A stretch of DNA of 62,427 nucleotides from an uncultured Anaerolineales bacterium (lineage in GTDB: Bacteria; Chloroflexota; Anaerolineae; B4-G1): NCBI GenBank assembly GCA_964551295.1, contig CAZKDJ010000001.1, positions 1 through 62,427 of the forward strand, written 5' to 3'. Under the pieces are notes generated by a model. The model saw nothing but the letters and a program-made list of their open reading frames with translations. It did not search any database and was not told the origin of the DNA. A program made the translations under genes and the position numbers. This document shows, piece after piece, positions 470-48,322 of this stretch (position 1 is the first letter of the stretch; each line of letters opens with the position of its first letter).

Positions 470-3400
470 TTAGCCAGATTCAGAAGGCGGCTCATTCGAT
501 GAGGTCATTTGCTCACGCCTCCAACGAAGTAGCTCAAGGACTGGGGCATCCTTCTGTGCTTCTGGTATGATGGGGGCATCCTCCTCGTGGATGCCTGCAC
601 TGTCAACATCATGTCTGCCAATCTCCCAAGCTTCTCGTATGTGCAATTCCCGTTTGACCAGATAGTAATCCCAAAAGATCTCCAAATCAGACAGGTCAGA
701 CTGATCACCCCTCGCGATGGAGGGAATAAGGTAGTAACCGCCGAAAGCCGCATAACTGTGAAGGAACATCTCAAGATTCTGATCCGATGTAGGCACCATT
801 GTGTTGACGCGACAAGCAAAGGCAAGTAGTCGCATGTCCGGCTGTGACTGTGCGATTTCAGGATTGGCACCGATGACAACTCGGTAAGAAAAGGGATTGG
901 CCTTATCGATACCGCGTATGACAGCAATACGAAGGCATTCCATCGTATCATGCGTCCCTAGCTCGCTGTGCCATTGAGCGAATATCTGCTTGGCAACTTC
1001 GCCATCTTCGAATATCGGAGCAAGGACGGGGGGAAACGATTCGTCAGGGGAAATAAGAAAACCTGTCCCATGCCACTTTGCTTTACTCCAGAGTGGGTCG
1101 CGTATGAACGAAATAGTCCGAATCTGAGTGTGTTTGGCATGGCCCTGAGCGAGCAGCTCAGGAGGCGGCCTTCTCTCACTTGTTGGGGGTGTCGAGAATC
1201 CAGCATCTAGATCTGGTTGCCTCTCAATGTGAGTATCATCCGCATCCCATGCCTTGGAACGCTTGAGTGGGTACTTGCCGACTTCTGGATCTGCCCAACT
1301 TGAAATCCGGTTCTTGGGTTCATGCCCCAGTACGTTACCCACGGTTATGAAGCTGCTTGTAAAACCGATGGAGCGGTCAAGTGCACGCTCGTCGCGGAAC
1401 AGCTTTTCAAGAATCTCATCAGGGTTTGCGATCAACAGAATTCTGGCACTGAGAGCCGCTAAAAGTTCGAGTAACTTCCCTCTTACTTCACCTTGGGTCT
1501 CAGGCGACATGCTGTGGGGATCAAATGCAGAGCAGACAATATCAATATGGGGCCTACCAGCATGATCTCGCAGATCGAATCCGAACGGCTGCTTGGCGAA
1601 GTCTGACTTTCGCACAGTTATGGTAAGAACAGGCTCGCGCGCTATGACTCCCTCAAGGATACTTGTGGAGAACAAGCTCTCAAGCGCAGCAAGTAGCGAT
1701 TCTGCCAGTTCAACGCAAGGCGAGTTATTCTTACTTTCCACAGTAATTTGACAGCCAAGCACAGCAGAACTAAGTTTGACTTCTCTTCTCGCATAGAACA
1801 AAGGCCTCTCGGGCAAATCCTCTAGAGCTGGCTGATTACGCCACTTAAGAAAGATGGTACGTAAATCTGTATCTCCCCAAGCCTCGCGATAGCCCTTATC
1901 TTGAAGCTCCTCCTCATAACCAAGCGCGTAGGTGAGTGCGATTGAGGCACCAGGCAAACCCAATCTCTCAAGAACATCGGGGAAAGTTGAAAGCCATTTG
2001 AGTTCCCAGAGATCTGTCTTCAATAGAAGAATTCCCAAGATCAAATCGAATTCTAGATCTCCCTCGGATAGACAAGCTCCGTCGTATCCTTGATCAACAA
2101 GGGCAACTCTAGCGATACTGTCTACCTCGTGCCACGCAAGGATTTGGGGCAGACGACCAAGCTGTAGCTCCAACCACTTCAGTCGCCTGTAACAAGCAGC
2201 TTGCAACGGCGTGACGTCCCCGTATCGCCATAGCTCATCGGTGGCAAGGGATGCCGCAGCTAGCAAAGTACCACGTGCTGCCCACAAAAGTCCTACGCGT
2301 TCATAGGCACACCCGCACGAGTACAAAGCATGCACGGAGTCGTAACGGCTCTCGTGCTTGTATAGGCGCCGTAGCGCACGTCCAAGCAGTTTTATAGCAT
2401 CATAGGGGTGATCGGCTTCAAGCTGCTGGTCACCGCGTTTGAGCAACATGCGAGCGGCAGAGATCCCTCCTTTTCGAGTTGAAATAGTCTTAACAATAGT
2501 TTCGAATAACTCGTCATAGGCTGGCATACCATCGAGAAACTCGCCTAATTCCGTCAATATCTCTGCCTGGGGCTCAAGTGGATAACCCGCGAGATCTTCG
2601 CCTTGTTGGATTACATCCTGAAGATCGCGGAGAACTGCGTCTACTGGTTCCTGAGAAGCGAGCTTTTGCATGAGCTGCATCTCAAGAAGCATGGTTTGAG
2701 CCTGAAGAGATGTGCTTGGTCTGTTTTCCTCCTGACTCAGCCGTTCCAATTCTTGAGTGAGGATGTCCGTATGCGCTTGAAAAACTTCCCTGTCAGGCCC
2801 GGCCTCGCCCATAGCTGTGCGCAGCGCACACCACAGATTGAAGAGACGTTCAAGATCGTACGAATTTCGACTTCCCTTCGTACGCTCTTCAACAGTCTTG
2901 TAGAGTTTAACGAACTCCTCATAGTCCTCGTACCACCAGAAGATTGTCCATGCCTTCTGGTACGCACACTCTAGAAGCTGGTATTGGGTTCCGCACTTGG
3001 CCGCGATTCGCTCTGCGCGCTCAAACCGGCCTATGGTCTCGGTACGCGGCTGCTCAAGCTCCCTCGACAAGATAGCTGTATTGATGCAATCATCTGCAAG
3101 CGACGAGCTAAATCGCTGTTGCTGAATTAACTCCTCAATCCGTCCCTCTAGCTCGTTCAGTTCTTCCTCTCGCTGTGTATCGAGCGGTCCCTTGCGTACC
3201 TCTTCTCGAGTTGACGTGATGATCTCAAGCTCCTCAATAGCGAGTTCCTCACGTCCATTGCCGAACACTTTGTCGAGTATCCAGGTGAGATCCAGGATTC
3301 TTACATCAAGGTTGTGCTTCGCGCTCAGTTCATCTTCCAGCTCGGCACGTGCTTTGTCACGGATGAACTGGTTGCTCACAAAAAAGGCTTTTTGGTAATC

Positions 3401-3808
3401 TCGCCCAGTCGAAGCGATCTTTGCTATGTCAGAGCGCAATTTTCCTCTCCACTTCTTCTTTGCGCTAAACGCAAATGCCCACCTCTCGGAAGCAGCTTCT
3501 CTCCCAATTCCCATATACCATCCAAGCGCGAGATCATCTGCTACGGGATATGTCTCCGAATCCACTTTGCTGTCGCCACCTCCTGTGGGGCCTGTCTGTG
3601 GCAGCAGATTAGGACATATTTCCAGCTCGGCCAAACGCCGAGCAAAATGCTCAAATTTGACCTCTTGACTGCGACTTGTGAGTGTGCTGAGGTGATACTC
3701 CAACATTGACCGATCCAGTCTTGGTTCTTCCTGGATGATAGTATCCGAGAATCTCTCAGGGCGTCGTGCTCTTAGGAATTCCTTGGGCGAAAAACTTCCA
3801 GTTTTCAT
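470..3808 (-). CDS. Large protein with an N-terminal restriction-endonuclease-like (PD-(D/E)xK-type) domain, central TPR-like helical repeats and an unknown C-terminal domain; candidate defence protein
   Basis: 1115-aa ORF (ATG 3808, or GTG 3817). N-terminus FEHFARRL..GPTGGGDSKVD..RWAFAFSAKKKW..KLRSDIAKI resembles REase folds fused to NLR/TPR proteins. AxxLLxxGxxxL / ALYxCGxAY helical repeats follow. AT-richer than the flanking chromosome. Confidence 0.55.
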   Translation of the reverse strand: MKTGSFSPKEFLRARRPERFSDTIIQEEPRLDRSMLEYHLSTLTSRSQEVKFEHFARRLAELEICPNLLPQTGPTGGGDSKVDSETYPVADDLALGWYMGIGREAASERWAFAFSAKKKWRGKLRSDIAKIASTGRDYQKAFFVSNQFIRDKARAELEDELSAKHNLDVRILDLTWILDKVFGNGREELAIEELEIITSTREEVRKGPLDTQREEELNELEGRIEELIQQQRFSSSLADDCINTAILSRELEQPRTETIGRFERAERIAAKCGTQYQLLECAYQKAWTIFWWYEDYEEFVKLYKTVEERTKGSRNSYDLERLFNLWCALRTAMGEAGPDREVFQAHTDILTQELERLSQEENRPSTSLQAQTMLLEMQLMQKLASQEPVDAVLRDLQDVIQQGEDLAGYPLEPQAEILTELGEFLDGMPAYDELFETIVKTISTRKGGISAARMLLKRGDQQLEADHPYDAIKLLGRALRRLYKHESRYDSVHALYSCGCAYERVGLLWAARGTLLAAASLATDELWRYGDVTPLQAACYRRLKWLELQLGRLPQILAWHEVDSIARVALVDQGYDGACLSEGDLEFDLILGILLLKTDLWELKWLSTFPDVLERLGLPGASIALTYALGYEEELQDKGYREAWGDTDLRTIFLKWRNQPALEDLPERPLFYARREVKLSSAVLGCQITVESKNNSPCVELAESLLAALESLFSTSILEGVIAREPVLTITVRKSDFAKQPFGFDLRDHAGRPHIDIVCSAFDPHSMSPETQGEVRGKLLELLAALSARILLIANPDEILEKLFRDERALDRSIGFTSSFITVGNVLGHEPKNRISSWADPEVGKYPLKRSKAWDADDTHIERQPDLDAGFSTPPTSERRPPPELLAQGHAKHTQIRTISFIRDPLWSKAKWHGTGFLISPDESFPPVLAPIFEDGEVAKQIFAQWHSELGTHDTMECLRIAVIRGIDKANPFSYRVVIGANPEIAQSQPDMRLLAFACRVNTMVPTSDQNLEMFLHSYAAFGGYYLIPSIARGDQSDLSDLEIFWDYYLVKRELHIREAWEIGRHDVDSAGIHEEDAPIIPEAQKDAPVLELLRWRREQMTSSNEPPSESG

Positions 3809-3968
3809 AGAATACACTTGTGGTTATCAAATGGCAGCAGGCCAAATCTTGAATCAGTCTCGATGCCTTCAACCAGCATCTTTTCGACCCTTGAAGTTCT
3901 GTACTCCCTTATGACTATGCTTTTTGAGCAGGCGAAAAGGCAGAAAGAAATTACTGGGCATTACCTGC

Positions 3969-7451: not shown

Positions 7452-9082
7452 GTCGCGTTCTAGTTATCGGGATTGATGGCGCAACGTTTGATTTGCTCAA
7501 ACCTTGGGCCGAGGCTGGGGAGCTTCCCAACCTGGCTCGGATGATGACCGAGGGCATCCACGGGCCGCTGGAATCCACCATTCCACCCGTCACCGCGCCG
7601 GCCTGGTCGACCTTCGCCACCGGCGTCAACCTCGGCAAGCACGGCGTGTTCGATTTCATCCGCCCCATGGGTGGCCGATACGACTTGGTCAACGCCACCT
7701 CCATTCGCGCGCCGACGCTGTGGCAAATCCTTTCCCAAGCTGGACGCAAGGTCGGCGTGATGAACGTGCCCGTCACCTACCCGCCCCAGCCCGTGAACGG
7801 CTTTGTCATCGGGGGGATGCTCTCCCCGGTGAGCGGCGCGTTCACCTATCCCGCCGACCTGCTCGACCGGTACGAAAGCCAGATCGAACCTTACCGCATC
7901 GCCCCGCACGTCCAGTACAAGCCGGGCAACGAGACCGAATTCATAGACGACCTGCTGGACTTGGCCGAGCGCCGAGGCCAATACGCGCTGCAGTTGATGG
8001 CCGATTACCCTTACGACTTTTTGATGTTTCACTTTCAGGCCACCGACGTGATGCAGCACGCGTTCTGGAAGTTTGTCGATCCCACGCATCCCCGCTACGA
8101 TCCACAGGCTGCTGCTCGCTTCGGCCCCGGGGTCAAGCGGCTTTACCAGCGCGTGGATGCAACCATCGGCCAAATCCGCGACCGCCTCACCGACGACACC
8201 ACCGTCATCGTCATGTCCGACCATGGCTTCGGTGCGCTACACTATGTCGTCAATATGAACCTGTTCCTTTTAGACCAGGGCCTGCTGAAACTGAAGCGGG
8301 GCGCCTGGACGCGCCTCAAGACCGGCCTCTTCCGCGCCGGTCTCACTCCTGCCTCCATATGGCACCTGGTCGAGCGCACCGGCTTGCAGAACTATGTCTG
8401 GCAAGTCTCCAAGTCCACACGCAACAAGGTCGTCGGCAAGTTCCTCTCCTTCGACGACGTGGACTGGTCGCAGACGGCTGCCTACTCCATCGGTCACGTC
8501 GGGCAGATCTATGTCAATCTCAAAGGGCGGGAGCCCGAGGGCATCATCGAACCCGGAGAGCAGCACGAGGCCGTCAAGCAGCAGGTGACCGAGGTACTGC
8601 ACCAACTGCGCCATCCTGAAACCGGACAACCGCTGGTGGACCGCATCATCCCTGGCGACCAGGTCATTCACGGTCCCTATGCTCACCAGGGACCCGACCT
8701 ACACCTCGTGATGGACGGCTACCGGACAATCGCCTTCCCTCTCTTTGCCACCGACCGTCACATCGTTACCCGTCAGATCCGCGGCGATTCCGGCTGCCAC
8801 CGGCTGCACGGCGTCTTGATCGCCGCAGGACCGGAAATCCAGCCGGGAAAGACGCTAGAGAGTCCCCACATCATGGACTTGGCGCCGACGATTCTGCATT
8901 TGATGGGACTGCCGGTGCTCGACGACATGGACGGGCGCGTGCTGACCGAGGCGCTGACCTCCGACCGTCCCGTCCAACGACAGCCCAACGGGGCCACCGA
9001 CGAGAAGCCTTATAGCGAGCTCTCTCAGGAAGAGGAAGCCGAGGTAGAAGACCGCCTCCGCGCGCTCGGCTATCTGGGCTGA
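7448..9082 (+). CDS. Alkaline phosphatase superfamily protein (type I phosphodiesterase/nucleotide pyrophosphatase-like)
   Basis: GIDGA, STIPPVTAPAW (Thr nucleophile), GKHGVFDF, MSDHGF and H..HG motifs; C-terminal EVEDRLRALGYL. Confidence 0.85.
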   Translation: MSRVLVIGIDGATFDLLKPWAEAGELPNLARMMTEGIHGPLESTIPPVTAPAWSTFATGVNLGKHGVFDFIRPMGGRYDLVNATSIRAPTLWQILSQAGRKVGVMNVPVTYPPQPVNGFVIGGMLSPVSGAFTYPADLLDRYESQIEPYRIAPHVQYKPGNETEFIDDLLDLAERRGQYALQLMADYPYDFLMFHFQATDVMQHAFWKFVDPTHPRYDPQAAARFGPGVKRLYQRVDATIGQIRDRLTDDTTVIVMSDHGFGALHYVVNMNLFLLDQGLLKLKRGAWTRLKTGLFRAGLTPASIWHLVERTGLQNYVWQVSKSTRNKVVGKFLSFDDVDWSQTAAYSIGHVGQIYVNLKGREPEGIIEPGEQHEAVKQQVTEVLHQLRHPETGQPLVDRIIPGDQVIHGPYAHQGPDLHLVMDGYRTIAFPLFATDRHIVTRQIRGDSGCHRLHGVLIAAGPEIQPGKTLESPHIMDLAPTILHLMGLPVLDDMDGRVLTEALTSDRPVQRQPNGATDEKPYSELSQEEEAEVEDRLRALGYLG

Positions 9083-12000
9083 TGGCAAGGCCGAAACCTC
9101 CAATCTCCACGGACGTACTCGTCCGCAATCTCCAATCGTTACGGACGTACTCGTCCGCAATCTCCAGTTCAAGGAGACATTTAATATCTGTCGTTTGCTA
9201 TTTGACACTTCTCCTTCTGGCCTTTCTGCTGCGCCTCGCCCCTCTCGGCCGCTACGTGACGCCCGACGAACCGGCCTGGGTCTACCGCTCCATCCGCTTT
9301 TCCGATGCCCTGGCCGCCGGCGACTGGGCAGCCGTGCCTTCGACCGGTCATCCCGGCGTGACGACGATGTGGTTGGGCACGTTGAGCGTATCGCTACAGC
9401 GCCTGCTCAGCCCGGCGGAAAGTGCCGCTCACCTCGACTGGATACACCGCTTAGCCTGGCTCGACCCGGAGAACGGTGAGGCGTTCTCCCACCTGACCTC
9501 TTTCCTCACAGGCGGGCGGATTGCCATCGCCCTGACCACCACGGCGGGTCTGGCGGTTCTCTATCCACTGTTACAACGCCTCCTCGACCGCCAGACAGCA
9601 TTGCTGGCCGTCGGCCTTCTGGCCTTTGACCCGTTCCTGATCGGCCACTCGGGCCTGCTGCATACCGACGCGCTGCTGGCGACCTTCACCCTGTTGGCCC
9701 TGGCCGCCGCCCTCAACGGCTTCCACGAGCCGCGCCGCGCAGTCTGGTGGGCGCTCTCCGGCCTCTTTACGGGCCTGGCACTGCTGACCAAGACACCGGC
9801 CATCATCCTGCTGCCCTTCATCCCCCTCATCCAACTCATCGCCCACCTGCATCAATCTCCAATCGCCAATCTCCAATCCCTAATCCGCCTCTCTTCATTT
9901 TTCGTTTCTCTTTCGCTGTTGTTCATCTTGGCAACCGCCGCTACCTGCCTCGCCCTCTACCCCGCTCTATGGGCTAATCCCATTGAAACATTAGACACCC
10001 TCTTCGCCTTCACCGAACGACACGTCGAGATGGCCCAGCGCCCGATTTTTTTCGCCGGGGAAATGACCTACAACCCCGGCCCACTTTTTTACCCCGCTGT
10101 CCTGCTCTTCCGTACCTCGCCCATCGTCTTGATAGGGTTAGTCGTCGGACTGATTGCCCTGCGCCGGTTCCCGGCCGAACGTCGCTTTGTGTTCCTCACA
10201 CTGCTGGCCTTTGCTGTTGCGTTTGGCACGCTGATGAGCCTAGGAGTCAAGAAGCACGACCGCTACCTGCTGCCGGCGCTTCCGCCACTCGCCCTCGCCG
10301 CCGCATTGGGGATTGGTGCGTTGGCACGCTCGACAAAGTATCCGTCGACCCGTTTACCAATCTCCCAATCTCTAATCTCCAATTCTCCCTTCCTCCTCCA
10401 GGCCCTCATCGCTCTCGCGTTCGCCCTCCACCCCCTCACCCACGCCAACCCGCTCGCCGGAGGGCCGTGGGTCGCCGGGCGCGTGCTCGACCTGGATTGG
10501 GGCGAGGGTATGGGCGAGGCCGCCCGCTGGCTGAACCGGCAGCCGAACGCCGAGCAACTCGGCGTCGCCGCTGGCTCTGTGCCCACATTTGCCCCCCTTT
10601 TCAAAGGTCATACCGTGCCACTGGATCGAACCTCTCTGGCCGACTATATCGCCCTACCCACCTCCCACACGCCTGCACCCGCTTATCCCGTTGCCCACAC
10701 CATCACGATCAGCCTCCTCGACCACACCGTTATCTACACTAACACCGCTCCCATCGAACAGGCCGCATTCCTGGCCGCACACGCAAAGTCCGATGATCTG
10801 ATCCTGCTCGACGCCGATACGCCACTCCTGCGCCGTTACACCGGCCCCGGCACGCTCGTCTCGCTGGCCGACCTGCCCACCCAGGCCGCCATCGCCCAGC
10901 GGCTGAACGAGTATGTCGACGGGCGATCTCGCATCTGGCTCGTCGCCTTCCCCGCTGCATCCTCCTTCGCTGCCGCTTACGTGAGCCAGAGCGTCGAGGC
11001 CATCGCCGCGCCGGTCGGAACCAAACCCGTCGGTCTAGGCACGATCACGCAATTCACAATACACGACACTCCAATCTCCAATCTCCACGGACGTACTCGT
11101 CCGCAATCTCCACGGACGTACTCGTCCGCAATCTCCAATTTCGGCCAAATCACTCTCCTCGATGCCCAACTACACAACGACGCTGGCCCCATTCGTACTC
11201 TGCTGCGCTGGCAGGTTCCAAGCCCGACGCCCACCGATCTCTATTTTTCCCTTTACCTGACAGATGCCGACGGCCACACCTGGGACGACGTCGGCCAACT
11301 GGTTCTCGACGAGTTTACCTTTCCCACCACCCATTGGCATTCCAATGCGTGGAGTGACCAAAGCCTGAGACTGACGCCGCCGGAGCGCACTCCGCCCGGT
11401 AGCTACACCGTGCGACTTACCGTCACCGACGGCACCGGCGCGCAACTGGGCGCTTGGGACGCCGAGGGTGCTTTCCAGGGCGTGCGCGTCGCCCTGGGCG
11501 AGGTAGAGATCGCCTCACCCGCTAGGCCAGCAGGCCAGGTGCACTGCACACAGGGTCAGCAGATCATCGCCGAGCCACTCATAGCCTGTATCACCGAACC
11601 ACCGACGCAGGCGGTTCCCTCTGGCGACACGTTTACCGTGGTCGTCACCTGGTCCACCGACACGCCGCCGGAGGACGATTACGCCGTGCGTTGGCGGTTG
11701 GTACGCAATGGCGTCGCTGCGCTGGAGCACATCGTACCGCTCTCCACATATCCCACGTCCAACTGGCGCGCTGGCGATAGCTTCGAGTCGCGGTACGACC
11801 TGCGCATCGATCCCGCCGTGCCCGCGGGCGACTATGACCTGGCGCTCAGCGTCTTCGATCCCGACGGCGACCCGCTCCGGGCCGAGGATGAGGCCGTCGG
11901 CACCGTCGAGGTCCTGCACCGCGACCGGCAGTTCGATCTACCGGCGGATATCGGCCACCCGCTCAACCTGACGCTGGGCGATACCATCCACCTGCGCGGG

Positions 12001-12381
12001 TTCGACCTGGACGCCACCGAGGGCGCTCCTGGTGACGTGCTGCCCCTGACCCTCTATTGGCAGGGCGACGGCCCCACCGATATCGACTATACCGTCTTTG
12101 TGCACCTCGTCGGCCCCGACGGGCTGCCCCACGGCCAATTGGACACCTTCCCCGGCGCAGGCTCCGCCCCTACCACCAGTTGGGCGCCGGGCCAGGTAGT
12201 CGTGAACGAGCTTGCCCTGCCCATCGCTGAGGACGCGGCCCCAGGCACGTATCACATCGCCGTCGGGCTGTACGACGCCGCCAGCGGCGGCCGCCCGCCC
12301 ATTACCGACAGTTCCGGCCAGCGCCTGCCCAACGACCAGGCCATCCTCCCAATCGGAATCAGTGTCGAGGGCAGCCCGTGA
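9082..12381 (+). CDS. GT-C (GT39/PMT_2/ArnT-like) membrane glycosyltransferase with three C-terminal beta-rich repeat domains
   Basis: YVTPDEP first-loop motif, HPGV, multiple TM helices, LLHTDA, GLALLTK, KKHDRY. TGATG coupling to the upstream gene. Confidence 0.8.
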   Translation: MARPKPPISTDVLVRNLQSLRTYSSAISSSRRHLISVVCYLTLLLLAFLLRLAPLGRYVTPDEPAWVYRSIRFSDALAAGDWAAVPSTGHPGVTTMWLGTLSVSLQRLLSPAESAAHLDWIHRLAWLDPENGEAFSHLTSFLTGGRIAIALTTTAGLAVLYPLLQRLLDRQTALLAVGLLAFDPFLIGHSGLLHTDALLATFTLLALAAALNGFHEPRRAVWWALSGLFTGLALLTKTPAIILLPFIPLIQLIAHLHQSPIANLQSLIRLSSFFVSLSLLFILATAATCLALYPALWANPIETLDTLFAFTERHVEMAQRPIFFAGEMTYNPGPLFYPAVLLFRTSPIVLIGLVVGLIALRRFPAERRFVFLTLLAFAVAFGTLMSLGVKKHDRYLLPALPPLALAAALGIGALARSTKYPSTRLPISQSLISNSPFLLQALIALAFALHPLTHANPLAGGPWVAGRVLDLDWGEGMGEAARWLNRQPNAEQLGVAAGSVPTFAPLFKGHTVPLDRTSLADYIALPTSHTPAPAYPVAHTITISLLDHTVIYTNTAPIEQAAFLAAHAKSDDLILLDADTPLLRRYTGPGTLVSLADLPTQAAIAQRLNEYVDGRSRIWLVAFPAASSFAAAYVSQSVEAIAAPVGTKPVGLGTITQFTIHDTPISNLHGRTRPQSPRTYSSAISNFGQITLLDAQLHNDAGPIRTLLRWQVPSPTPTDLYFSLYLTDADGHTWDDVGQLVLDEFTFPTTHWHSNAWSDQSLRLTPPERTPPGSYTVRLTVTDGTGAQLGAWDAEGAFQGVRVALGEVEIASPARPAGQVHCTQGQQIIAEPLIACITEPPTQAVPSGDTFTVVVTWSTDTPPEDDYAVRWRLVRNGVAALEHIVPLSTYPTSNWRAGDSFESRYDLRIDPAVPAGDYDLALSVFDPDGDPLRAEDEAVGTVEVLHRDRQFDLPADIGHPLNLTLGDTIHLRGFDLDATEGAPGDVLPLTLYWQGDGPTDIDYTVFVHLVGPDGLPHGQLDTFPGAGSAPTTSWAPGQVVVNELALPIAEDAAPGTYHIAVGLYDAASGGRPPITDSSGQRLPNDQAILPIGISVEGSP
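9101..9166 (+). repeat. Two copies of hairpin element ACGGACG-TACT-CGTCCG embedded in CAATCTC heptamers
   Basis: Stems at 9110-9125 and 9142-9157, in frame within the CDS N-terminus. Confidence 0.9.
9853..9887 (+). repeat. Heptamer tandem repeat (CAATCTC family, 5 degenerate units)
   Basis: caatctc caatcgc caatctc caatccc taatccg, translated as QSPIANLQSLI. Confidence 0.85.
11071..11140 (+). repeat. Two tandem 25-nt hairpin units ACGGACGTACTCGTCCGCAATCTCC with flanking heptamers
   Basis: Exact units at 11087-11111 and 11112-11136, in the linker before the first C-terminal repeat domain. Confidence 0.9.
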
Positions 12382-15300
12382 GCAAATCTCCAATCTCCAA
12401 TCTCCAATCTCTGCTCCCAATACTCACTGTCGGCCTTTTATGCGCCGTCGCCCCCCTGCTCCGCGCCGACGTCCCCTGCACCCACGACGGCGGCCTGCAC
12501 TACTACCGCGTCGTCGCTATGCGCCAGGCCTTGAACGACGGCATCCCGTTCACCCGCTACCTGCCCGACCTGGCCTTTGGCTACGGCTTTCCGTTCTTCA
12601 ACTATCGCGCGCCGGTGTCATACTATCTGACCCTGGCATTGTTCCTGATCGGGTTTGCACTGCCCACGGCCATGAAACTGGTCTACGTCACCAGCATTCT
12701 GGGCTCCGCCATCTCGGCCTATCTGCTGGCCCGCGACCTGTTCGGACCGCGGGCCGGGCTGGTCGCCGCCGTCGCCTATGCCTACGCACCCTACCAGTTC
12801 CTCAACGCCCTCACGCGCGGCAACGCCCCCGAATCACTGGCGCTGGCGCTGTTGCCCCTGATCCTGTGGGCCTTTCGCCGCCTGGTACTGACCGGTCGCC
12901 GGCGCTGGTTTCTGGTCAGCGTCGGCTCCCTGGCCACCCTGTACCTGACCCACAATATCTCCAGCTTGCTCTTTACCCCCTTCCTCATCGCCTATCTGCT
13001 GATGCTGTGGCTGGTCTGCCGCCGAAAGGGACACTGGATGATCACCGGGGGTGCATTTGTCCTGGCATTGGGGCTGACCGCCTTCTTCTGGGCGCCGGCC
13101 ATCCTGGAGAAAGACTGCGTCCAGCTCGAGGCCTCCCGCGCCAATCGCAACAACGACTTTCACTACAACTTTCTGGGCCTGGCCGAGATCCTGGCGCCAC
13201 CCCGGCCGGTGGACACCTCGCTGCTCAACCCACCTATGCGAGTCCACCTGGGACTGGCACCCGCCGTCCTGGCCGCGATCGGGCTCGCCGTCGGTCTCCT
13301 GCGCCAACTTGACCGCGAGCGAAAGGCCACGCTCATCTTTTTCGCCTTCGCCGCCGTCGCGATGATCTGGATGAGCACCGGAGCGTCCCTCTGGATATGG
13401 AAGCACCTGCCTCTCATCTCCTTCGTCCAATTCCCGTGGCGCTTTATCGGCCGCGCCGCCCTGCCCATCGCCATCCTGGCTGGTGTCGCCGCCGCTCACA
13501 AACCAAATCAAACGACCAACAAAATCTCGCATCACGCATCACGCATCACGTCAAGCAACCGCAGGTTGCCCGCATCACGTTTTACGCCCACTGTCCTTAT
13601 AGCTCTCCTGATCATCACCGCCTTCCCCGTCACCTATCCGCTCCGCGGCTATTGCCAAGCGGACCCCGCATCCCCTACCATCGCGGACCTCTTCGCTTAC
13701 GAGCACCGGCCCGGAGGCCTCGTCGGCGCTGACCCCACGGGATCCTACTTTCCTAAGTGGGTCAAGCAAAAGCCCCGTGGATCGCCGCTGGAGGCACAGT
13801 ACGCCGCCGGTGGGCCGGTCGCCCGCTTCGAGGAGAGCGCCATACCCAAAGATGCCTCCGTCGTCGAGGCCGACTATGGCCCCAACCGCGCCCGCGTCGT
13901 GGTCGAAACTCCGGTCCCGTTCCGCGCCCGCTACCTGGCCTTTTACTTCCCCGGCTGGCGCGTCACCATAGATGGTCAACCGGTTGCCATCACCCCCACC
14001 GACCCTGAAGGCTTGATCTCCTTCGACGTACCCGCCGGCCAACACACCGTCGCCGTCCGCTTCGGTGAGACCCCCCTGCGCTTCACCTGCGACGTCATTT
14101 CCCTCCTCAGCCTCGCCATCCTCATCATCACTACAACTCGTTACTCACAAATCTCCAATCTCCAATCTCCAATCTCCCAACCCGCGCCTACAGATTCACC
14201 AGCATTCATCGTTCACTGCTCATTGTTCACCGCCGCACTGCTCCTCCTGGCCTTCAAACTCGCCATCGTCGATCGAACCGACACCATCTTCCGCCGTCCC
14301 ACCTTGCAGCCCGATGCCACGCTGCCCGGCGTCCAGCACCCGCTGAACCAGCGCTACGCCGATGGCTTGACCCTCATCGGCTACGATCAGGACCGGGGGA
14401 CGATGCCCGCCGACGGCGTGCTGCGCGTCGACCTGTACCTGACCGCGTACGCCCAACCCAACGCCCGCTACCAGAGCGTGATTCACTTGATCGGCCCCGA
14501 TGGACTGCGCTGGAGTCAAGCCGACACCTTCCGCCCCCGCGGCTACACCAGCTATCCCTACACGACCATCTGGTCGCCGGAGGTTTATGCGCTGGACAGC
14601 CACGAGGTCGAGCCCCTGTCCGGCACGCCGCCGGGCACCTACGACGTCGTGCTGACCGTTTTCGACAAGGACACCCTGGCGCCGCTTTCAGCGCTAAACG
14701 AACAAGGCCAACCTGCCGCACCCGAGCTGACGCTGGGACAGGTCACCTTGACCCGGCCCCACCCCCGCCCAGCGGGACTATCCGGACACAACCGTCTTGG
14801 TCTGCAAATGGGAGACTTGACGCTGCTGCTTGCCGATTTCAACACCGACCAAGCTGCCACCGGCGACCCCGTCTTTCTCACCACATTCTGGCAAGCCGAC
14901 GAGCGATCTACCGAGGATGTTACCTTTCACCTCACCCTCATCGCCGCTGACAGCTCGCCCGTCGCCGAGTACGCCCTTCCGCCCACAGGTGCTTGGTACC
15001 CTACGGCCTCGTGGCAACCCGGCGACGTATGGCGCGGCCAGCACCTGTTCCACCTACCTGCCAACCTCGACAGCGGCGACTACACCTGGCAAATCTCCCT
15101 GCCACCCAATTACCAATCTACCAATCTACCATCCACCCTCCACATCACCGCTCCGCCCCACACCTTCACCCCTCCCACACTCCCACACACACTCACCGCC
15201 ACCCTGGGAGAAACCGCCACACTCGTCGGCTTTGGCCTGGCAAGTGAAATGCGATCCGGGAGCACGCTGACCGTCACCCTCGTCTGGCGAGCGGAGGAGA

Positions 15301-15581
15301 CGCCCGCCACCTCCTACCGCGTTTTCCTGCACCTGCTCGACGCCGAGGGTAACCTGGTGGTCCAATCCGACGGCGTGCCCGCCGGCTGGACGCGTCCTAC
15401 CACCGGCTGGCTGCCCGGCGAATACATCACCGATACCCACACGCTCACCATCCCACCCGCAGCGGCGCCGGGCGAGTACACGCTACAGGCCGGTATGTAC
15501 GTCCCCGGCAACGCTCGCCTCACCACCGACGATGGCTGCGACGCGGTTCGCCTAACCATTCTGATATTGGACGGTCGATGA
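12378..15581 (+). CDS. GT-C family membrane glycosyltransferase (PTPS-related/YfhO-like) with three C-terminal repeat domains
   Basis: HDG..H.YR, RYLPDLAFGYGFPFFNY, many TMs, YfhO-like FPGWRVTIDG. GTGA overlap with the upstream gene. Confidence 0.8.
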   Translation: MSKSPISNLQSLLPILTVGLLCAVAPLLRADVPCTHDGGLHYYRVVAMRQALNDGIPFTRYLPDLAFGYGFPFFNYRAPVSYYLTLALFLIGFALPTAMKLVYVTSILGSAISAYLLARDLFGPRAGLVAAVAYAYAPYQFLNALTRGNAPESLALALLPLILWAFRRLVLTGRRRWFLVSVGSLATLYLTHNISSLLFTPFLIAYLLMLWLVCRRKGHWMITGGAFVLALGLTAFFWAPAILEKDCVQLEASRANRNNDFHYNFLGLAEILAPPRPVDTSLLNPPMRVHLGLAPAVLAAIGLAVGLLRQLDRERKATLIFFAFAAVAMIWMSTGASLWIWKHLPLISFVQFPWRFIGRAALPIAILAGVAAAHKPNQTTNKISHHASRITSSNRRLPASRFTPTVLIALLIITAFPVTYPLRGYCQADPASPTIADLFAYEHRPGGLVGADPTGSYFPKWVKQKPRGSPLEAQYAAGGPVARFEESAIPKDASVVEADYGPNRARVVVETPVPFRARYLAFYFPGWRVTIDGQPVAITPTDPEGLISFDVPAGQHTVAVRFGETPLRFTCDVISLLSLAILIITTTRYSQISNLQSPISQPAPTDSPAFIVHCSLFTAALLLLAFKLAIVDRTDTIFRRPTLQPDATLPGVQHPLNQRYADGLTLIGYDQDRGTMPADGVLRVDLYLTAYAQPNARYQSVIHLIGPDGLRWSQADTFRPRGYTSYPYTTIWSPEVYALDSHEVEPLSGTPPGTYDVVLTVFDKDTLAPLSALNEQGQPAAPELTLGQVTLTRPHPRPAGLSGHNRLGLQMGDLTLLLADFNTDQAATGDPVFLTTFWQADERSTEDVTFHLTLIAADSSPVAEYALPPTGAWYPTASWQPGDVWRGQHLFHLPANLDSGDYTWQISLPPNYQSTNLPSTLHITAPPHTFTPPTLPHTLTATLGETATLVGFGLASEMRSGSTLTVTLVWRAEETPATSYRVFLHLLDAEGNLVVQSDGVPAGWTRPTTGWLPGEYITDTHTLTIPPAAAPGEYTLQAGMYVPGNARLTTDDGCDAVRLTILILDGR
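12385..12412 (+). repeat. Heptamer tandem repeat AATCTCC x4 at gene start
   Basis: Encodes KSPISNLQSL directly after the start codon. Confidence 0.85.
13528..13552 (+). repeat. Heptamer tandem repeat CGCATCA x3
   Basis: cgcatca cgcatca cgcatca cgtca, with a further unit at 13571; lies in an inter-TM loop. Confidence 0.8.
14150..14230 (+). repeat. AATCTCC x4, followed by a second degenerate heptamer run (cattcat cgttcac tgctcat tgttcac)
   Basis: Direct reading at 14150-14177 and 14203-14230. Confidence 0.8.
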
Positions 15582-23419: not shown

Positions 23420-23480
23420 GCGCGATTGAAAATCGCACACGGTTTGTCATCCTGTGGGACAAGATGGCATCTTGTCCTAC
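23416..23480. repeat. Convergent pair of GTAG-tagged REP-like hairpins
   Basis: Plus: GTAG-GC-GCGATT-GAA-AATCGC (23416-23436). Minus: GTAGGACAAGATG-C-CATCTTGTCCCAC (23480-23454). Confidence 0.7.
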
Positions 23481-23504
23481 ACGATACAAGACACGGAGAC
23501 TGAG

Positions 23505-24602
23505 ATGCAGGACTCAACACAAGAACAACTCGAAACCGACGTAGCAGCGATATGGGGCACGCCGCTAACAGCGGTACGCTGCGCCCATTGTGGGGAGGCG
23601 CACCTGGTCAAGGACGTTCCGCCGCGTTGCCCCTTCTGCCTGGAGGGGCCGGTCGAGTCGCAGCCCGCCTTCCTGCCGGAGGAACCGCCGGAACAGGTCG
23701 TGGACTATCAGGTTTCCGGGGCCGGGCTTCGCGCCGCGCTGGAGCGCTGGTCGAAAGGTGTCTGGTTTCGTCCCAGCGATATGCAGGCCGACGGCATGGC
23801 GCAACGCGCGCAACGCTACTTGATCCCCCTGTGGCTGGTGGATGGACAGGTGCAGGCCACCTGGCGGGCCGACGTGGGTTTTGACTACCAGGTAGTGAGT
23901 TCCCAGGACCGCTACCGCGATGGCGCCGGGTGGAGATCGCAGGAGGTGAAAGAGACGCGCGTGCGCTGGGAGCCGCGCGTGGGCCGCCTGGAGCGAGAGT
24001 ACGAGAACCTCCCCGCCCCCGCCCTCGACGATCACCACAAGCTGATGGGCCGCCTGGGCGAGTACAACCTCAGCCGACGCAGCGCCTACACTCCCGACAT
24101 CGTGGCCGACGCCGACGGTGGCGCCGTGCGCGTCCCCACCCTGGAGCCGGAGGCCGCTTGGCCCGGCGCACAGACCGCTTTCGTGCGCGCCGCCCAGGCC
24201 GAGTGCCAGGAAGCCGCCGCGGCCGACCACGTGCGCGACTTCACGGTCGACGCCCAGTACAGCGGCTTGAATTGGACACTGCTCCTGCTACCCGCCTATG
24301 TCACCTGGTACGAGGAAGGCGGACGGGTCTGGCCCGTGCTGGTCAACGGGCAGATCGGGCACGTGAGCGGCGCGCGGTGGGCCTCGGCGCGCAAGGCCAA
24401 GGTAGCATCGTTCGTCATCGGCGCGGTGGCCCTGCTCCTGATCCTGCTGGGCGGCCTGCTGTCGGTAGCCGGGCTGCTCTTTCCACCGTTGATCGCCGTC
24501 GGCGGCGTCATCCTGCTCGTGGGCGTGCTGCCCGCGCTGGCCGCCCCCATCCCCGTCATCGCCGCGTGGGCGTACAACCGAGGGTCGGAGCAAGAGACCT
24601 GA
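23505..24602 (+). CDS. Zinc-ribbon membrane protein, paralogue of 22124-23419
   Basis: CAHCG, CPFC, YLIPLWLVD, LLLLPAYV..Y, VLVNGQ.G.V.G and a C-terminal TM pair. SD GGAG before ATG 23505. Confidence 0.75.
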   Translation: MQDSTQEQLETDVAAIWGTPLTAVRCAHCGEAHLVKDVPPRCPFCLEGPVESQPAFLPEEPPEQVVDYQVSGAGLRAALERWSKGVWFRPSDMQADGMAQRAQRYLIPLWLVDGQVQATWRADVGFDYQVVSSQDRYRDGAGWRSQEVKETRVRWEPRVGRLEREYENLPAPALDDHHKLMGRLGEYNLSRRSAYTPDIVADADGGAVRVPTLEPEAAWPGAQTAFVRAAQAECQEAAAADHVRDFTVDAQYSGLNWTLLLLPAYVTWYEEGGRVWPVLVNGQIGHVSGARWASARKAKVASFVIGAVALLLILLGGLLSVAGLLFPPLIAVGGVILLVGVLPALAAPIPVIAAWAYNRGSEQET

Positions 24603-28274: not shown

Positions 28275-29420
28275 TTAGTCCAATATACAAGGTAGCGGAA
28301 AATCGTTTACCGTTACTACCTCTATCAACTGGAAACACTTGGCATCGGAGTCCGGATTTTCACACACAATTGGCTCGGCGCGAGTGTGTGTCTTGGAGAC
28401 TCGGACATCATAATAGATGGAATCCTCTCTGGGAATCAATTCGATCTCACGGGTGTACCCCAGCAAAACACCTACAAAGGTAGTTTCTCCATCGCTATCG
28501 CGGGAAAATTCAATGATGCTCGGCTGCGTCGCCAGCAATTCCGCAGCTTGTACATCAGGCAGTAGCATTAAGCGGACTCCCGCGGCGAGCGTCGTAACCT
28601 TGAGGACATGCTTGAACTCCCACTGCTGATCTCCAGGTGCAAGTATATAGGTCCCCTCTCCTTGCCAACCGGAAGCTGATCCTCGGCATCGGAAAAGGAA
28701 TCCGTGCCGATCCTTTCCGATCTGCACGAGTTGTCCTTGAGGTGCATGTCCAGATTGCCCACAGTAAGTGATAGAGTGCTCCCTAGTCACCATTTGCCAC
28801 ACATCGCCTATCTTTGAGAAGACGGCGCCATCAATGGCCGGGCTCAAGGACCGAACAGAATAACCCAAATAGTCAGTCGGCAGCACGCCCGTCATCACAA
28901 CGTACTTGGCATTTCCCTCTTCGTGAAAAGAGCTCGCCAGCAGCACATTGACCGTGTTCTCTTCAACGATGACGCCAGTGCACGGCCGCTGCGTGAAGCA
29001 CAGCAGCCCGTCCTCGCCCTCGAAGTAGACCATTTTTCGATCCTCATACATGAGCCGCAGGGCCTCCCTAAGGTCGAATTCTCCCTCAATAGCACCGGCG
29101 GGGAATGGCGTGGGAGTCGGCGTGCGGGTAGGTGTGGGAGAGGGAGTGGCAGTGACGCCGCGTCTTTGCGCCCAGACCGTGGCCCGTGCGCGGGCGGTGT
29201 TCTCCAGTCTGGCATACATGGAGGCGACAGGCGCAGCGGTCTGGGTTTGTCGGATGGCTACCACTTCTGTGAGACCTGGGGTACGGGTAGCCGATGGCGT
29301 GGAGGCAATATAATCCTCGGGCGCACAAAATCGAGTCGCCAAAGAATTCACTGCGATCAAGAACACGACCCCGACAGCAATTATCCAAAGAGCCCTGCGC
29401 TTCCGCATAGATTCGTTCAT
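28275..29420 (-). CDS. Hypothetical exported or membrane-anchored protein with a Thr/Pro-rich linker
   Basis: 381-aa ORF with an N-terminal hydrophobic helix, TPSPTPTRTPTPTP linker and Cys-containing globular domain. AT-richer than its neighbours. Confidence 0.65.
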   Translation of the reverse strand: MNESMRKRRALWIIAVGVVFLIAVNSLATRFCAPEDYIASTPSATRTPGLTEVVAIRQTQTAAPVASMYARLENTARARATVWAQRRGVTATPSPTPTRTPTPTPFPAGAIEGEFDLREALRLMYEDRKMVYFEGEDGLLCFTQRPCTGVIVEENTVNVLLASSFHEEGNAKYVVMTGVLPTDYLGYSVRSLSPAIDGAVFSKIGDVWQMVTREHSITYCGQSGHAPQGQLVQIGKDRHGFLFRCRGSASGWQGEGTYILAPGDQQWEFKHVLKVTTLAAGVRLMLLPDVQAAELLATQPSIIEFSRDSDGETTFVGVLLGYTREIELIPREDSIYYDVRVSKTHTRAEPIVCENPDSDAKCFQLIEVVTVNDFPLPCILD

Positions 29421-45863: not shown

Positions 45864-47009
45864 CTAGACCTCTTTTTCCACCGCTTTCGCAAAGGTTGAG
45901 TTTTCGACCAACTTTTTCAACTCCCGCTCGAACGCCACACTGTCGAGCGGCAGGTCGACGGGCGCGCACGTCAGTGAGGCGTACAGCATCGCGTTGGCCA
46001 GCTCGACGGAATGGACGCCCTCCTCGGCAGGCGCGATCAGTCCCGCCCCCTCCAGAATGGCGTCGGCGAAATTCTCCAGGATCGCCAGATGCTGTCCGCC
46101 GTGGCCTTCGATGTCGAACGTCTCTACCTCGACGTCCGGCTTGGCGAATGCCTCCTTCGACGTGCGCAGAAATTCAGTCACCGGCACCGCGTTGTGGGCA
46201 AAGGTGAGCCGCCCGTCCTCCAACACCAACCTGCCGTTCTCGGCGGCGATCTCGAAGCGGTTGGTGCCCGGCGCCTCCCCGGTCGAGGTGACGAAAACGC
46301 CCGTGCAGCCGTTCGGATACTCGAAATAGGCCGTCACCTCGTCTTCCACCTCGATGGCGTGCCGCTTGCCCAGGCTGCACACGCTCCACACCCGGCTCGG
46401 CATGCCGCAGATCCACTGGAACAGGTCCAGTTGGTGCGGACTCTGGTTCAACAGCACCCCGCCGCCCTCCCCCGCCCACGTGGCCCGCCAGCTACCAGAG
46501 TCATAGTAGGTTTGCGTGCGAAACCAATCCGTGATGATCCAACTGACCCGTATAAAATCCCCCAGCACGCCCTCATCCACGAGCTGCCTGATCGTCCGGT
46601 AGTGCGGATCGGTGCGCTGGTTGAACATCGCGGCAAAGATCAGGCGCTCGTCCCGGTGCGCCGCACGTTTGTGCGCTGCGATGAGCCGCTCGCAGTCAGC
46701 CTTGTGCACCGAGATGGGCTTTTCGACCAGCACGTGATGCCCGCTCTCCAACGCTGCGATGCCGATGGTCGTGTGCGTATAGTGGGGCGTGCAGATGAGC
46801 ACCGCCTCGCAGATACGATCCCTCAGCAACGCGTCGGAATCGGTGTAGGCCGGGCAGCCGTACCGCTCCCCGGCAGCACGTGCCCGCTCCGGCACCACGT
46901 CGCACACCGCCGCCAACTCTACCTTGTCGAGCTTGGCGACGTTTTCAAGGTGCAGCTGGCCAATGCCACTGACGCCGATGACGGCCAGGCGAACTGTCTT
47001 CTCGCTCAT
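45864..47009 (-). CDS. Gfo/Idh/MocA family oxidoreductase
   Basis: AVIG.SGIG, TPHY.H, HVLVEKP, GGGVLLNQSPHQLD. Confidence 0.9.
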   Translation of the reverse strand: MSEKTVRLAVIGVSGIGQLHLENVAKLDKVELAAVCDVVPERARAAGERYGCPAYTDSDALLRDRICEAVLICTPHYTHTTIGIAALESGHHVLVEKPISVHKADCERLIAAHKRAAHRDERLIFAAMFNQRTDPHYRTIRQLVDEGVLGDFIRVSWIITDWFRTQTYYDSGSWRATWAGEGGGVLLNQSPHQLDLFQWICGMPSRVWSVCSLGKRHAIEVEDEVTAYFEYPNGCTGVFVTSTGEAPGTNRFEIAAENGRLVLEDGRLTFAHNAVPVTEFLRTSKEAFAKPDVEVETFDIEGHGGQHLAILENFADAILEGAGLIAPAEEGVHSVELANAMLYASLTCAPVDLPLDSVAFERELKKLVENSTFAKAVEKEV

Positions 47010-48304
47010 TCGCCCATTCGCTGATTCGCCGGTTCGCCCACTCGGTACAACATCTCCCCCGCCCTCGGCACGACCAGCACCCCCTCCTCCTCACGCCCGC
47101 GCCACGCGTCCAGATCGACGGTGGCCGGGTCGAGGTAGCCCAGGCCCAGTCGCTCGCAGCGCTCGCGTGGGATACCGGTCGCCAGCGTGACCTTGATGCG
47201 CCGGCTCTCGATGCCGGTCTCGGCGTCGTACGTGCCGAGACCACACAGGTGGGTCGAGTGAGCCAGCACGCCCCAGGGACAATCCTTGAAGCGCTCCCAC
47301 TGCTTGAGGAAATAGTCGCGCACGTGGTAGCCGGTCTCGTCGAGCCAGCGCCCGTGAGTGTAAGAAACCTCGTCGATGTGCGGGGCGTAGATGACGATCT
47401 CGCCGCCGTCGGCGACCGCCGGCTCCATCTTGTACATGCCCTTGGCCGCCGTCCACAGATCGTCATACAGTTCCGGCATCACCGAGAGCACGCGCTTGAA
47501 CGGCTTTTCGACATATACGATGTGGTGCTGCGCCGAAAGGTCGGCTGCCGCCTCGTAGGCCGCCTCCGGCGTGCCAAAGTAAAGGCCCACCAGATCACTG
47601 TGTCCTGCGGATCCTTTGGATCCGACCACCACCATGCTAAAGCACAGCTTGAGCACATCGATGAACGCGGCCGCCCGATCGATCACCCGGCGCACGGGCG
47701 TGTGCTTGGTGCCAATAACGTGCCAGCTGGTGATCACCGCCCCCAGCCAGTGGGAAAAGTCGATCACCTCCGGCCCGGCGACGCCGGGAAAGAAGTACTT
47801 GTTGCCGCCGGAAAAGCCCACCACCTCGTGCGGAAAGGTCGGCCCGCAGATGATGACGAGGTCGTAATCGAACAGCCGCTTGTTGATCGTGACCGGCACG
47901 TCCATCGACATCAGCCCGCCGGTTATCTCCTCGATCTCGGCGGCGGGGATGGTGCCGATGTGCTTGAAGGTCGCAGGATCGCTCCACTCGTGGTTATAGA
48001 TGCCGACCCGGGCGTATTTCCCCACCCGCTCCTCGGGCGTCAGGCCAAAGAGCTGGTTGAGGTGCGCCTCGTCCATCGGCTGGTGCGTCCCCAACGCAAT
48101 CAAGTAATCGAGTGCGGTAACCTTTTCGCCGACGGCGTCGTAAAAGACGCGGAACATCAGCGGCATCGGCGCGGAGCGCGTGGCATCTGGCGTGATAAAG
48201 AGCACCCGTTTGCCGGTCACGTCGTGCTCGGCGAAAGCCGCCGCCACGATCTGCCGCACCTCGTCTGCGTTCAGCGTTCTATCCGTGTATCCTCGACCGA
48301 TCAA
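47006..48304 (-). CDS. LarA-family (nickel-pincer) racemase/epimerase; candidate mannonate/gluconate 2-epimerase
   Basis: PDATRS, IALGTH, YNHEW, FPHEVVGFSGG.K motifs. TTG start at 48304 with GGAGA SD; the track start at 48655 overlaps the HAD gene. Confidence 0.8.
   Translation of the reverse strand: MIGRGYTDRTLNADEVRQIVAAAFAEHDVTGKRVLFITPDATRSAPMPLMFRVFYDAVGEKVTALDYLIALGTHQPMDEAHLNQLFGLTPEERVGKYARVGIYNHEWSDPATFKHIGTIPAAEIEEITGGLMSMDVPVTINKRLFDYDLVIICGPTFPHEVVGFSGGNKYFFPGVAGPEVIDFSHWLGAVITSWHVIGTKHTPVRRVIDRAAAFIDVLKLCFSMVVVGSKGSAGHSDLVGLYFGTPEAAYEAAADLSAQHHIVYVEKPFKRVLSVMPELYDDLWTAAKGMYKMEPAVADGGEIVIYAPHIDEVSYTHGRWLDETGYHVRDYFLKQWERFKDCPWGVLAHSTHLCGLGTYDAETGIESRRIKVTLATGIPRERCERLGLGYLDPATVDLDAWRGREEEGVLVVPRAGEMLYRVGEPANQRMGE
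47007..47046 (+). repeat. Octamer tandem repeat forming the larA-like/oxidoreductase junction
   Basis: cattcgcc cattcgct gattcgcc ggttcgcc cactcgg; contains the stop and next start codons on the minus strand. Confidence 0.75.
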
Positions 48305-48322
48305 TCTCCGATCTCCAATCTC
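48302..48322 (+). repeat. CAATCTC heptamer x3 forming the HAD/larA-like spacer
   Basis: caatctc cgatctc caatctc; on the minus strand it supplies GGAGA and the TTG start. Confidence 0.8.

Follow-up and report, generated by a model that had tools for sequence, protein, structure and literature searches.

An 18-nt hairpin cassette has been inserted in frame four times within one putative glycosyltransferase gene of an uncultured Anaerolineales bacterium, each time into a tandem array of the heptamer CAATCTC and each time at the same phase of the heptamer. The DNA analysed is a 62,427-nt stretch of one contig (the window), and the read runs that contain it are salt-marsh metagenomes. Sparse relatives of the cassette occur in a sister lineage and in an HdrA-like gene. 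We consider that the cassette may be a passenger of the heptamer arrays that spreads between them by conversion or template switching with the help of homology, and give this reading a probability of about 0.5.

The inserted unit and its four copies

An earlier note on this DNA, made from the letters alone, had reported a 25-nt hairpin element at 9109, 9141, 11087 and 11112. The 25-mer ACGGACGTACTCGTCCGCAATCTCC does occur at these four positions without a mismatch, always on the + strand, and none of 100 shuffles of the window contains a match, even with three mismatches allowed. The hairpin therefore stands, but its 25-nt extent does not: the inserted unit is 18 nt long, made up of the 16-nt hairpin CGGACG-TACT-CGTCCG and a CA (the boundaries being ambiguous by 2 nt), and the other 7 nt are a heptamer that was already there before insertion. 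All four copies lie inside the open reading frame (ORF) 9082..12381, which encodes a protein that we call P0001.

Copy 1: 9110..9127 (hairpin 9110-9125 plus CA), + strand, read as TDVLVR; recent
Copy 2: 9142..9159 (hairpin 9142-9157 plus CA), + strand, TA before the hairpin, read as RTYSSA; old
Copy 3: 11088..11105 (hairpin 11088-11103 plus CA), + strand, read as HGRTRP, within the third heptamer of the linker array; recent
Copy 4: 11113..11130 (hairpin 11113-11128 plus CA), + strand, read as RTYSSA, in the next heptamer unit; recent

The recent copies 1, 3 and 4 are identical to copy 2. Both pairs are direct repeats, with a spacing of 32 nt at the N-terminus and with copy 4 starting 25 nt 3' of copy 3. 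In the linker, the window reads CAATCTC CAATCTC CA[CGGACGTACTCGTCCGCA]ATCTC CA[CGGACGTACTCGTCCGCA]ATCTC CAATTTC, and the point of insertion is always NA^ATCTC of the CAATCTC heptamer. Because 18 nt make six codons, and no stop codon occurs in any of the six frames of the cassette, every single insertion stays in frame, as the earlier note had observed. Its claim that the DNA rather than the peptide is conserved also holds: translation of the four copies uses three sense frames, giving TDVLVR (residues 10-15), RTYSSA (21-26 and 678-683) and HGRTRP (669-674), and a further copy, in the HdrA-like gene described below, is read in an antisense frame.

An AlphaFold2 model of P0001 is of modest quality, with a mean predicted local distance difference test score (pLDDT) of 64. 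Both insertion regions, residues 1-31 and 663-683, are coil with pLDDT < 50 in this model, and they correspond to the N-terminal tail before the first transmembrane helix (TM1) and to a linker between soluble domains, the two locations that had been noted before. For the protein, an insertion probably amounts to six more residues in coil and is near neutral.

Empty sites and the age of the copies

In an alignment of 21 orthologues (A1), P0001 is set apart from the other members by four gaps, each of exactly six residues. The empty sites that the earlier note had proposed looking for in orthologues are clean at the DNA level in five orthologous loci (L004, L005, L051, L052 and L053), where 18 nt are missing and array length is otherwise unchanged. 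At copy 1, the six-residue gap is present in 20/20 orthologues of A1; the window reads CAATCTC CA[CGGACGTACTCGTCCGCA]ATCTC and the sister-lineage locus L004 is of identical length minus 18 nt. Copy 1 is recent because no orthologue has it. The linker site reads ISNLQSPISNFG, IANRQSPIANFG and similar in the orthologues of A1, and in L004, L005 and L053 this place consists of five unbroken units with the same total length as the window minus the inserts.

Hairpin-encoded peptides occur in only 2 of 120 orthologues, namely P0001 with four and P0003 with one, at its N-terminus. The contig of P0003 is L004, which carries the cassette as CGGACATACTTGTCCG at the position of copy 2, read as RTYLSA. 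Copy 2 is old because L004 shares it at 81% nucleotide identity between the genes. Judging from these alignments, copies 1, 3 and 4 are specific to the lineage of the window.

Are the copies real? Mis-joining of reads across the heptamers, which the earlier note had raised as an alternative, is scarcely credible: short de Bruijn unitigs do end exactly at the repeat, so that the region is difficult to assemble, but the Logan contigs of five independent samples (X1-X5) reproduce every junction, the frame is open, the length offsets from orthologues are exact multiples of 18 nt, and the independently assembled sister contig holds a diverged copy. A 151-nt contig from a sixth sample (X8) is identical to the window over 9053-9203, a span that includes both N-terminal copies. 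Copies 3 and 4 are linked by a 51-nt unitig (11083-11133) in samples X2, X3 and X4, and since its depth is about single-copy, the tandem holds exactly two units. Assembly artefact is thus refuted as far as the present data reach. The 34-, 33- and 51-nt unitigs, expected at 3, 2 and 1 places in the gene, have depths of ~ 2.4-2.75 : 1.5-1.6 : 1, and these ratios leave no further exact copies elsewhere in the organism.

Copies in a second gene and elsewhere

Two more, diverged copies are present in four metagenomes at similar depth. Both came to light when contigs were aligned to the 91-nt linker region; E5 differs at 3 of 42 nt and E6 at 4 of 35 nt. The flanks of E5 (contigs from X1-X4) are open on the opposite strand and read, in frame, VQYEPERKPK-[VEIADEYVRGDWRL]-RVTVRDMVLG. 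With a padded query and all open frames, they match the HdrA-like protein P0121, which is from the same Joint Genome Institute (JGI) sample as L004. At the homologous place, the DNA of P0121 (contig L054) reads GAGATTG-CGGATGAGTACATCTG-TAGAGATTCGGAATTG (in a shorter quote, GAGATTG-CGGATGAGTACATCTG-TAGAGATTC), translated IEIADEYICRDSEL, and the antisense peptide of the cassette is IADEYV. The turn in P0121 is six residues longer than in ~ 130 HdrA-like representatives (14 versus 8 residues between KP and LEV), and the turn of the solved HdrA structure 5odc is likewise shorter. Removing 18 nt from it leaves a three-unit heptamer array of family-typical length. The phase is identical to that of the other copies, TA[hairpin]CA-ATCTC on the CAATCTC strand. 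By sequence comparison, the hdrA copy is a second old, orthologous insertion, found in both lineages, antisense and in frame within a beta-turn, and it places the cassette family in more than one gene.

P0121 (L054 1-2600) has more heptamer-encoded stretches, THTISNLQSPVEE at residue 167 and QIANLQPADLQS at residue 565. A GAGATTG array follows right after its stop codon, and the E5 contig of the window's population has the same downstream array.

The open frames of E6 have no protein match. Because E6 runs into inverted heptamers, it is probably intergenic.

The census, which is indirect for the source population in that it combines Logan contigs and k-mer depths, stands at six copies at four sites there and two copies in the sister lineage. 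At least five of the six in the source population are intragenic. All known copies (7/7) lie in CAATCTC arrays, in one phase and in one orientation relative to the heptamer, so the earlier note was right that they are always embedded in such heptamers. All three recent copies are in a gene that already held one, at distances of 32 nt, 2 kb and adjacent heptamers.

Beyond these contigs the family is not widespread. The 20-mer CACGGACGTACTCGTCCGCA, with CA on both sides, has three matches in 185,579 species genomes, all by chance, in unrelated contexts and with no heptamers, and the degenerate 19-mer ACGGACRTACTYGTCCGCA has 45 matches in 241 million metagenome contigs, none of them beside heptamers. 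Both collections lack the window's contig and L004, so these scans speak to spread and not to copy number in the source genome. An Rfam search gave no match for the hairpin, and no RNA-seq run contains the stretch. In a phmmer test, the peptide of a single cassette copy would score E ~ 2e3.

Heptamer arrays as hosts

CAATCTC is over-represented and strand-biased in the window, with 27 occurrences on the + strand and one on the - strand. The arrays that flank the cassettes are detected by Tandem Repeats Finder (TRF) with a period of 7, and no cassette is present in five or more of the window's other CAATCTC arrays.

9098..9166, + strand: N-terminal array of degenerate CAATCTC units, hosting copies 1 and 2 and encoding the cytoplasmic tail before TM1
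9853..9885, + strand: empty CAATCTC array (site 2) in a loop of P0001
10357..10388, + strand: empty degenerate CAATCTC array (site 3) in another loop of P0001
11069..11142, + strand: linker array, five CAATCTC units without the inserts, hosting copies 3 and 4
12383..12411, + strand: empty CAATCTC array, N-terminal in the next GT-C paralogue (glycosyltransferase fold C; gene 12378..15581)
14148-14177: empty array in the same GT-C paralogue

In every one of the 21 orthologues of A1, heptamer-encoded peptide (ISNLQSPIS and variants) is found at four matching places: the N-terminal tail, two loops between transmembrane helices, and the linker after the first soluble domain. The N-terminal array is also present in L004, L005, L051, L052 and L053, with lineage-specific units and with the frame kept with the overlapping ATG. 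The arrays are older than the cassette and occupy the same places, free of the hairpin, in all other orthologues. These comparisons show them to be old and translated, and to fill disordered tails, loops and linkers with low-complexity sequence in this Anaerolineae lineage.

The arrays at 9853-9885, 10357-10388, 12383-12411, 14148-14177 and 15106-15131 recur at equivalent loops of GT-C paralogues in six related loci, sometimes as octamers. The unit varies by lineage and site (CAATCTC, CAATCGC, CAAATCT, CAAATTT, GGCAAGT, TCATTGT and ACCAATCT), and the window's arrays are unusually uniform in being CAATCTC. Two further arrays of the window touch intergenic or junction DNA: an octamer array (TCGCCCAT-like) at 47002-47044 spans the junction between a larA-like gene and a downstream GFO/IDH/MocA oxidoreductase gene, and a three-unit CAATCTC array at 48302-48322 forms the spacer between a HAD gene and the larA-like gene.

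A second hairpin sits within an array at 13524-13580, in the gene 12378..15581. Here ATCACGC units are split by ~ 22 nt that include GCAACC-GCA-GGTTGC, a 6-bp stem after which the heptamer resumes; the segment is translated (HHASRITSSNRRLPASR) and is kept in L005 (8212-8270), while L051 and L052 have another repeat, LPLASCLL twice, at the equivalent site. This case suggests that a hairpin cassette in a heptamer array is not unique. At site 2 of the orthologue P0008 (L052 4623-4680), a CAAATCG/CAAATCA array carries a 24-nt in-frame insert, CTTCGACTCCGCTCAGGACAGGCC, with a weak stem and the translation ILRLRSGQ. Arrays of this glycosyltransferase family thus gather other short inserts too.

Pairing of the stem

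The hairpin has a 6-bp stem and a 4-nt loop, TACT, and a predicted stability of -7.4 kcal/mol as DNA and -9.8 kcal/mol as RNA (z about -5). Three variants of its arms are available:

Window: CGGACG / CGTCCG
L004: CGGACA / TGTCCG
L054, on the CAATCTC strand: CAGATG / CATCCG

The loop is invariant among the three, and compensatory changes are found at two different base pairs, one from G:C to A:T and one from C:G to T:A. One cell of the comparison is unpaired (A.C); in the mRNA sense of hdrA it becomes a G.U pair. Pairing holds in 97% of cells overall, whereas slid partners give 47% at most, and values as high as those observed arise in 9 of 500 shuffles. At 2-3 per 16 nt, the changes are as numerous as the 81% gene identity predicts, so the cassette drifts at an ordinary rate yet stays paired. 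Across these three variants, the pattern is suggestive of stem pairing maintained over time. Its upkeep could come from self-templated correction within the palindrome or from selection on the RNA or DNA hairpin, two causes that the stem data cannot separate.

A local origin of the hairpin from its flanks was considered and rejected, as the hairpin arms do not match the flanks. A tandem 12-mer, TACTCGCCCGCA twice at 48386-48408 in a - strand gene, has an 11/12 match to the loop plus right arm (TACTCGTCCGCA); this likeness is probably coincidental, because ~ 0.3 such matches are expected by chance.

How did the cassette spread?

Homology-driven copying fits the pattern better than transposition. 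The cassette entered the arrays before the split of the window and sister lineages, at the N-terminus of the GT-C gene and at the beta-turn of the HdrA-like gene, and in the window lineage three more copies then arose, all within the gene already carrying it. Identical heptamers on both sides could let a nascent or broken strand of one array pair with a cassette-bearing array, and ectopic or intra-array gene conversion, or template switching, would copy in the extra 18 nt. Each such event would be viable, being six codons without a stop, and selection would discard products with an altered heptamer register, since 18 + 7k is a multiple of 3 only when k is 0, ± 3 and so on. Homology-assisted copying would explain why the phase (NA^ATCTC) and the orientation relative to the heptamer are fixed, why new copies have identical flanks and cluster beside an existing copy, and why the family stayed tiny over a long time with no copy outside arrays.

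Several points weigh against this reading. A conversion tract is not directly demonstrable where the flanks are only heptamers, and the 2-nt CA/CA (or TA/CA) end repeats and the invariant phase are equally expected from a site-specific transposase. At least some long-range events are needed, as the cassette is found at four sites that are unlinked or far apart, and in both orientations with respect to genes. The copy census rests on Logan contigs and k-mer depths, and homology copying leaves the origin of the hairpin sequence unexplained.

So, could the cassette be a mobile element in its own right? The alternative that survives best, although we regard it as unlikely, is a micro-transposon that is not autonomous: a hairpin of 16 nt, with the target CA duplicated over 2 nt, would be moved in trans by a hairpin-recognising transposase. 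The mover could be, for example, an enzyme of the type encoded by repetitive extragenic palindrome (REP)-associated tyrosine transposase (RAYT) genes or by IS200-IS605 insertion sequences (IS), a Y1 HUH enzyme acting on single-stranded DNA and targeting CA within CAATCTC. A transposase explains the fixed phase, the same in 7/7 copies, and the CA/CA ends, with precise insert boundaries and CA (TA) on both sides, but it explains neither the clustering in one gene nor the tiny size of the family. Insertions in two unrelated genes and probably at one intergenic site, sense and antisense, are in its favour, as is a stable hairpin that resembles the substrates of Y1 enzymes known in general from REP/RAYT and IS608. 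The 2-nt repeat, by contrast, is equally explained by insertion between the C-A and A-T of a repeat. Only about six copies exist, with no sign of a burst; none was found outside heptamer arrays, and none in the two huge collections. The three recent copies went into an occupied gene while many arrays are empty, and tandem copies are direct, not inverted doublets like those formed by REPs (REPINs). The linked Y1/RAYT transposase or reverse transcriptase that the earlier note suggested looking for did not appear: family searches with the 38 largest window ORFs scanned, which do not include five at the right end, brought up neither a transposase nor a RAYT or reverse transcriptase. To our knowledge, 16-18 nt is also less than any described transposase substrate.

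The selfish micro-element proposed in the earlier note therefore survives in part. The in-frame insertions are real, but a prolific mobile element does not agree with a family that is tiny, old and array-bound, with no transposase found among the window ORFs scanned. Similarly, of the suggestion that the element grows from heptamer arrays, the bond to arrays is upheld and the origin from them is not, the hairpin being unrelated to the heptamer and the arrays long pre-dating it.

A selected, functional hairpin, which would be compatible with either mode of spread, ranks next and seems doubtful. An mRNA hairpin might slow ribosomes at the N-terminal tail and at domain boundaries, and so might aid membrane targeting or co-translational folding; it might stabilise the polycistronic mRNA or direct its processing; or the interruption might protect heptamer arrays, prone as they are to slippage, from frameshifts. 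Such a function would suit a stem that, over ~ 19% nucleotide divergence, has two compensatory changes independent of each other and a third that is G.U on the transcribed strand of hdrA. The invariance of the loop would suit it too, as would the placement of the sites in an N-terminal tail, an interdomain linker and a beta-turn. Slippage should also be lower once a five-unit array is divided into stretches of two units or fewer, as is generally known of interrupted microsatellites. On the other hand, 118/120 orthologues do without the hairpin, Rfam holds no match for it, and it is sense in one gene and antisense in another. Palindromes can stay paired by templated correction without any function, and the covariation sample amounts to three variant sequences.

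Slimmer still is the chance that the cassette is the smallest trans-mobilised element yet seen, its 16-nt hairpin being moved in single-stranded form by an enzyme associated with the arrays, Y1/HUH (RAYT-like) or other, with cutting at CA within CAATCTC. If this were true, the heptamer arrays of Chloroflexota would be landing pads or products of a dedicated DNA-processing activity, and the compensatory evolution of the stem would reflect recognition of the hairpin by the enzyme.

Comparison with known systems

The closest precedent for palindromes in coding sequence is the Rickettsia palindromic element (RPE; Ogata et al. 2000). RPEs are ~ 100-150 bp long; a single genome has 44 of them, belonging to ten families, and the peptide that each encodes is conserved and read in one frame (PMC10969869). 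Compared with RPEs, the cassette is similar in being a palindromic repeat that is in frame and translated in unrelated genes (four copies in the GT-C gene and one in the HdrA-like gene), in its surface or linker placement, and in that DNA rather than a functional peptide is copied. It differs in being 18 nt long with about six copies, in having peptides that vary by frame (TDVLVR, RTYSSA, HGRTRP and, antisense, IADEYV), in lying only inside a pre-existing heptamer array, and in belonging to another phylum.

REPs, on a scale of 20-40 nt, are extragenic, and a genome has tens to hundreds of them. Their head tetranucleotide is conserved, and they spread in the form of inverted doublets, the REPINs. 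The cassette shares with REP/REPIN-RAYT systems a short GC-rich hairpin repeat and an evolution that preserves structure, and a Y1 enzyme is conceivable as its mobiliser. Unlike them, it is intragenic, has very few copies, is arranged in direct tandem, lacks a recognisable head motif, and has no RAYT among the window ORFs scanned. Compared with MITEs, the miniature inverted-repeat transposable elements, the cassette as a whole is one inverted repeat, its flanking 2-nt CA/CA or TA/CA is indistinguishable from the host heptamer, and its length is 16-18 nt versus ~ 50-500 bp. MITEs have terminal inverted repeats that match those of the IS from which they derive, and a target-site duplication; no IS was found among the scanned window ORFs, and neither collection scan gave a related longer element.

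The host arrays have better-known counterparts. Short tandemly repeated repetitive (STRR) heptamers of cyanobacteria were reportedly described by Mazel et al. in 1990. The other counterpart is the TAACTGA repeats of Beggiatoaceae, Cyanobacteria and Bacteroidetes (PMC4679880). Published arrays of both kinds are overwhelmingly intergenic and were not reported from Chloroflexota. Our arrays resemble both in being dispersed 7-nt tandem units that are strand-biased, have a lineage-specific unit and occasionally lie within ORFs, whereas the cassette itself is not a heptamer derivative. In the heptamer-repeat literature, we found no description of a discrete non-heptamer hairpin cassette riding on such arrays. 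Interrupted microsatellites and the quasi-palindrome template switching of the Ripley type are also related, in that repeats permit misaligned pairing and palindromes are corrected toward perfect pairing. Template switching of this type normally copies adjacent sequence; by contrast, the palindrome of the cassette is unrelated to its flanks and spreads as a discrete unit.

In-frame palindromic repeats, best known from Rickettsia, and dispersed heptamer arrays, which the literature describes chiefly in cyanobacteria and giant sulfur bacteria, are here combined inside working Chloroflexota genes. Under homology-assisted copying, the cassette would be a natural tag of sequence that passes between arrays in register, whether these are 25 nt apart or in other genes. 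It makes array dynamics that are otherwise opaque traceable, and its main value is as a tracer of array exchange. The hairpin plus CAATCTC is also a concrete substrate for asking whether an enzyme acts. On the practical side, cassettes of this kind interrupt assemblies made from short reads and bring spurious low-complexity peptides into protein databases.

The host gene and its neighbourhood

9082..12381, + strand: host gene of all four copies, encoding P0001 (1099 amino acids), from the ORF list, its translation and Pfam

P0001 matches Pfam PMT_2 (4.9e-13) and PMT (1.8e-06), and because of these domains we assign it as a predicted GT-C fold membrane glycosyltransferase, GT39 and ArnT-like. 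An exact look-up among recorded proteins gave no match for it; its 120 best relatives are 47-78% identical and carry the source labels Anaerolineae or Chloroflexota. The gene is the fourth of a + strand cluster ordered SurE, GT2, phosphodiesterase and then five tandem GT-C paralogues. Three other ORFs of the window have no Pfam match at E ≤ 1e-5: 470-3817 (- strand, 1115 amino acids), 23454-24602 (+ strand, 382 amino acids) and 28275-29420 (- strand, 381 amino acids).

The ATG of P0001 overlaps the stop codon of the upstream phosphodiesterase gene (TGATG). Between 9082 and TM1 the window has no in-frame ATG, GTG or TTG, and with no later start before TM1 the N-terminal hairpin copies are most likely translated. 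A Shine-Dalgarno-like AAGGAG lies at 9171-9186, directly 3' of the N-terminal hairpins. In L005, AAGGAG precedes a TTG that the gene caller picked as the start; the same codon is TTA in the window, and the upstream ATG at 9082 is therefore the sole usable start there. The start of the glycosyltransferase gene may thus differ between lineages.

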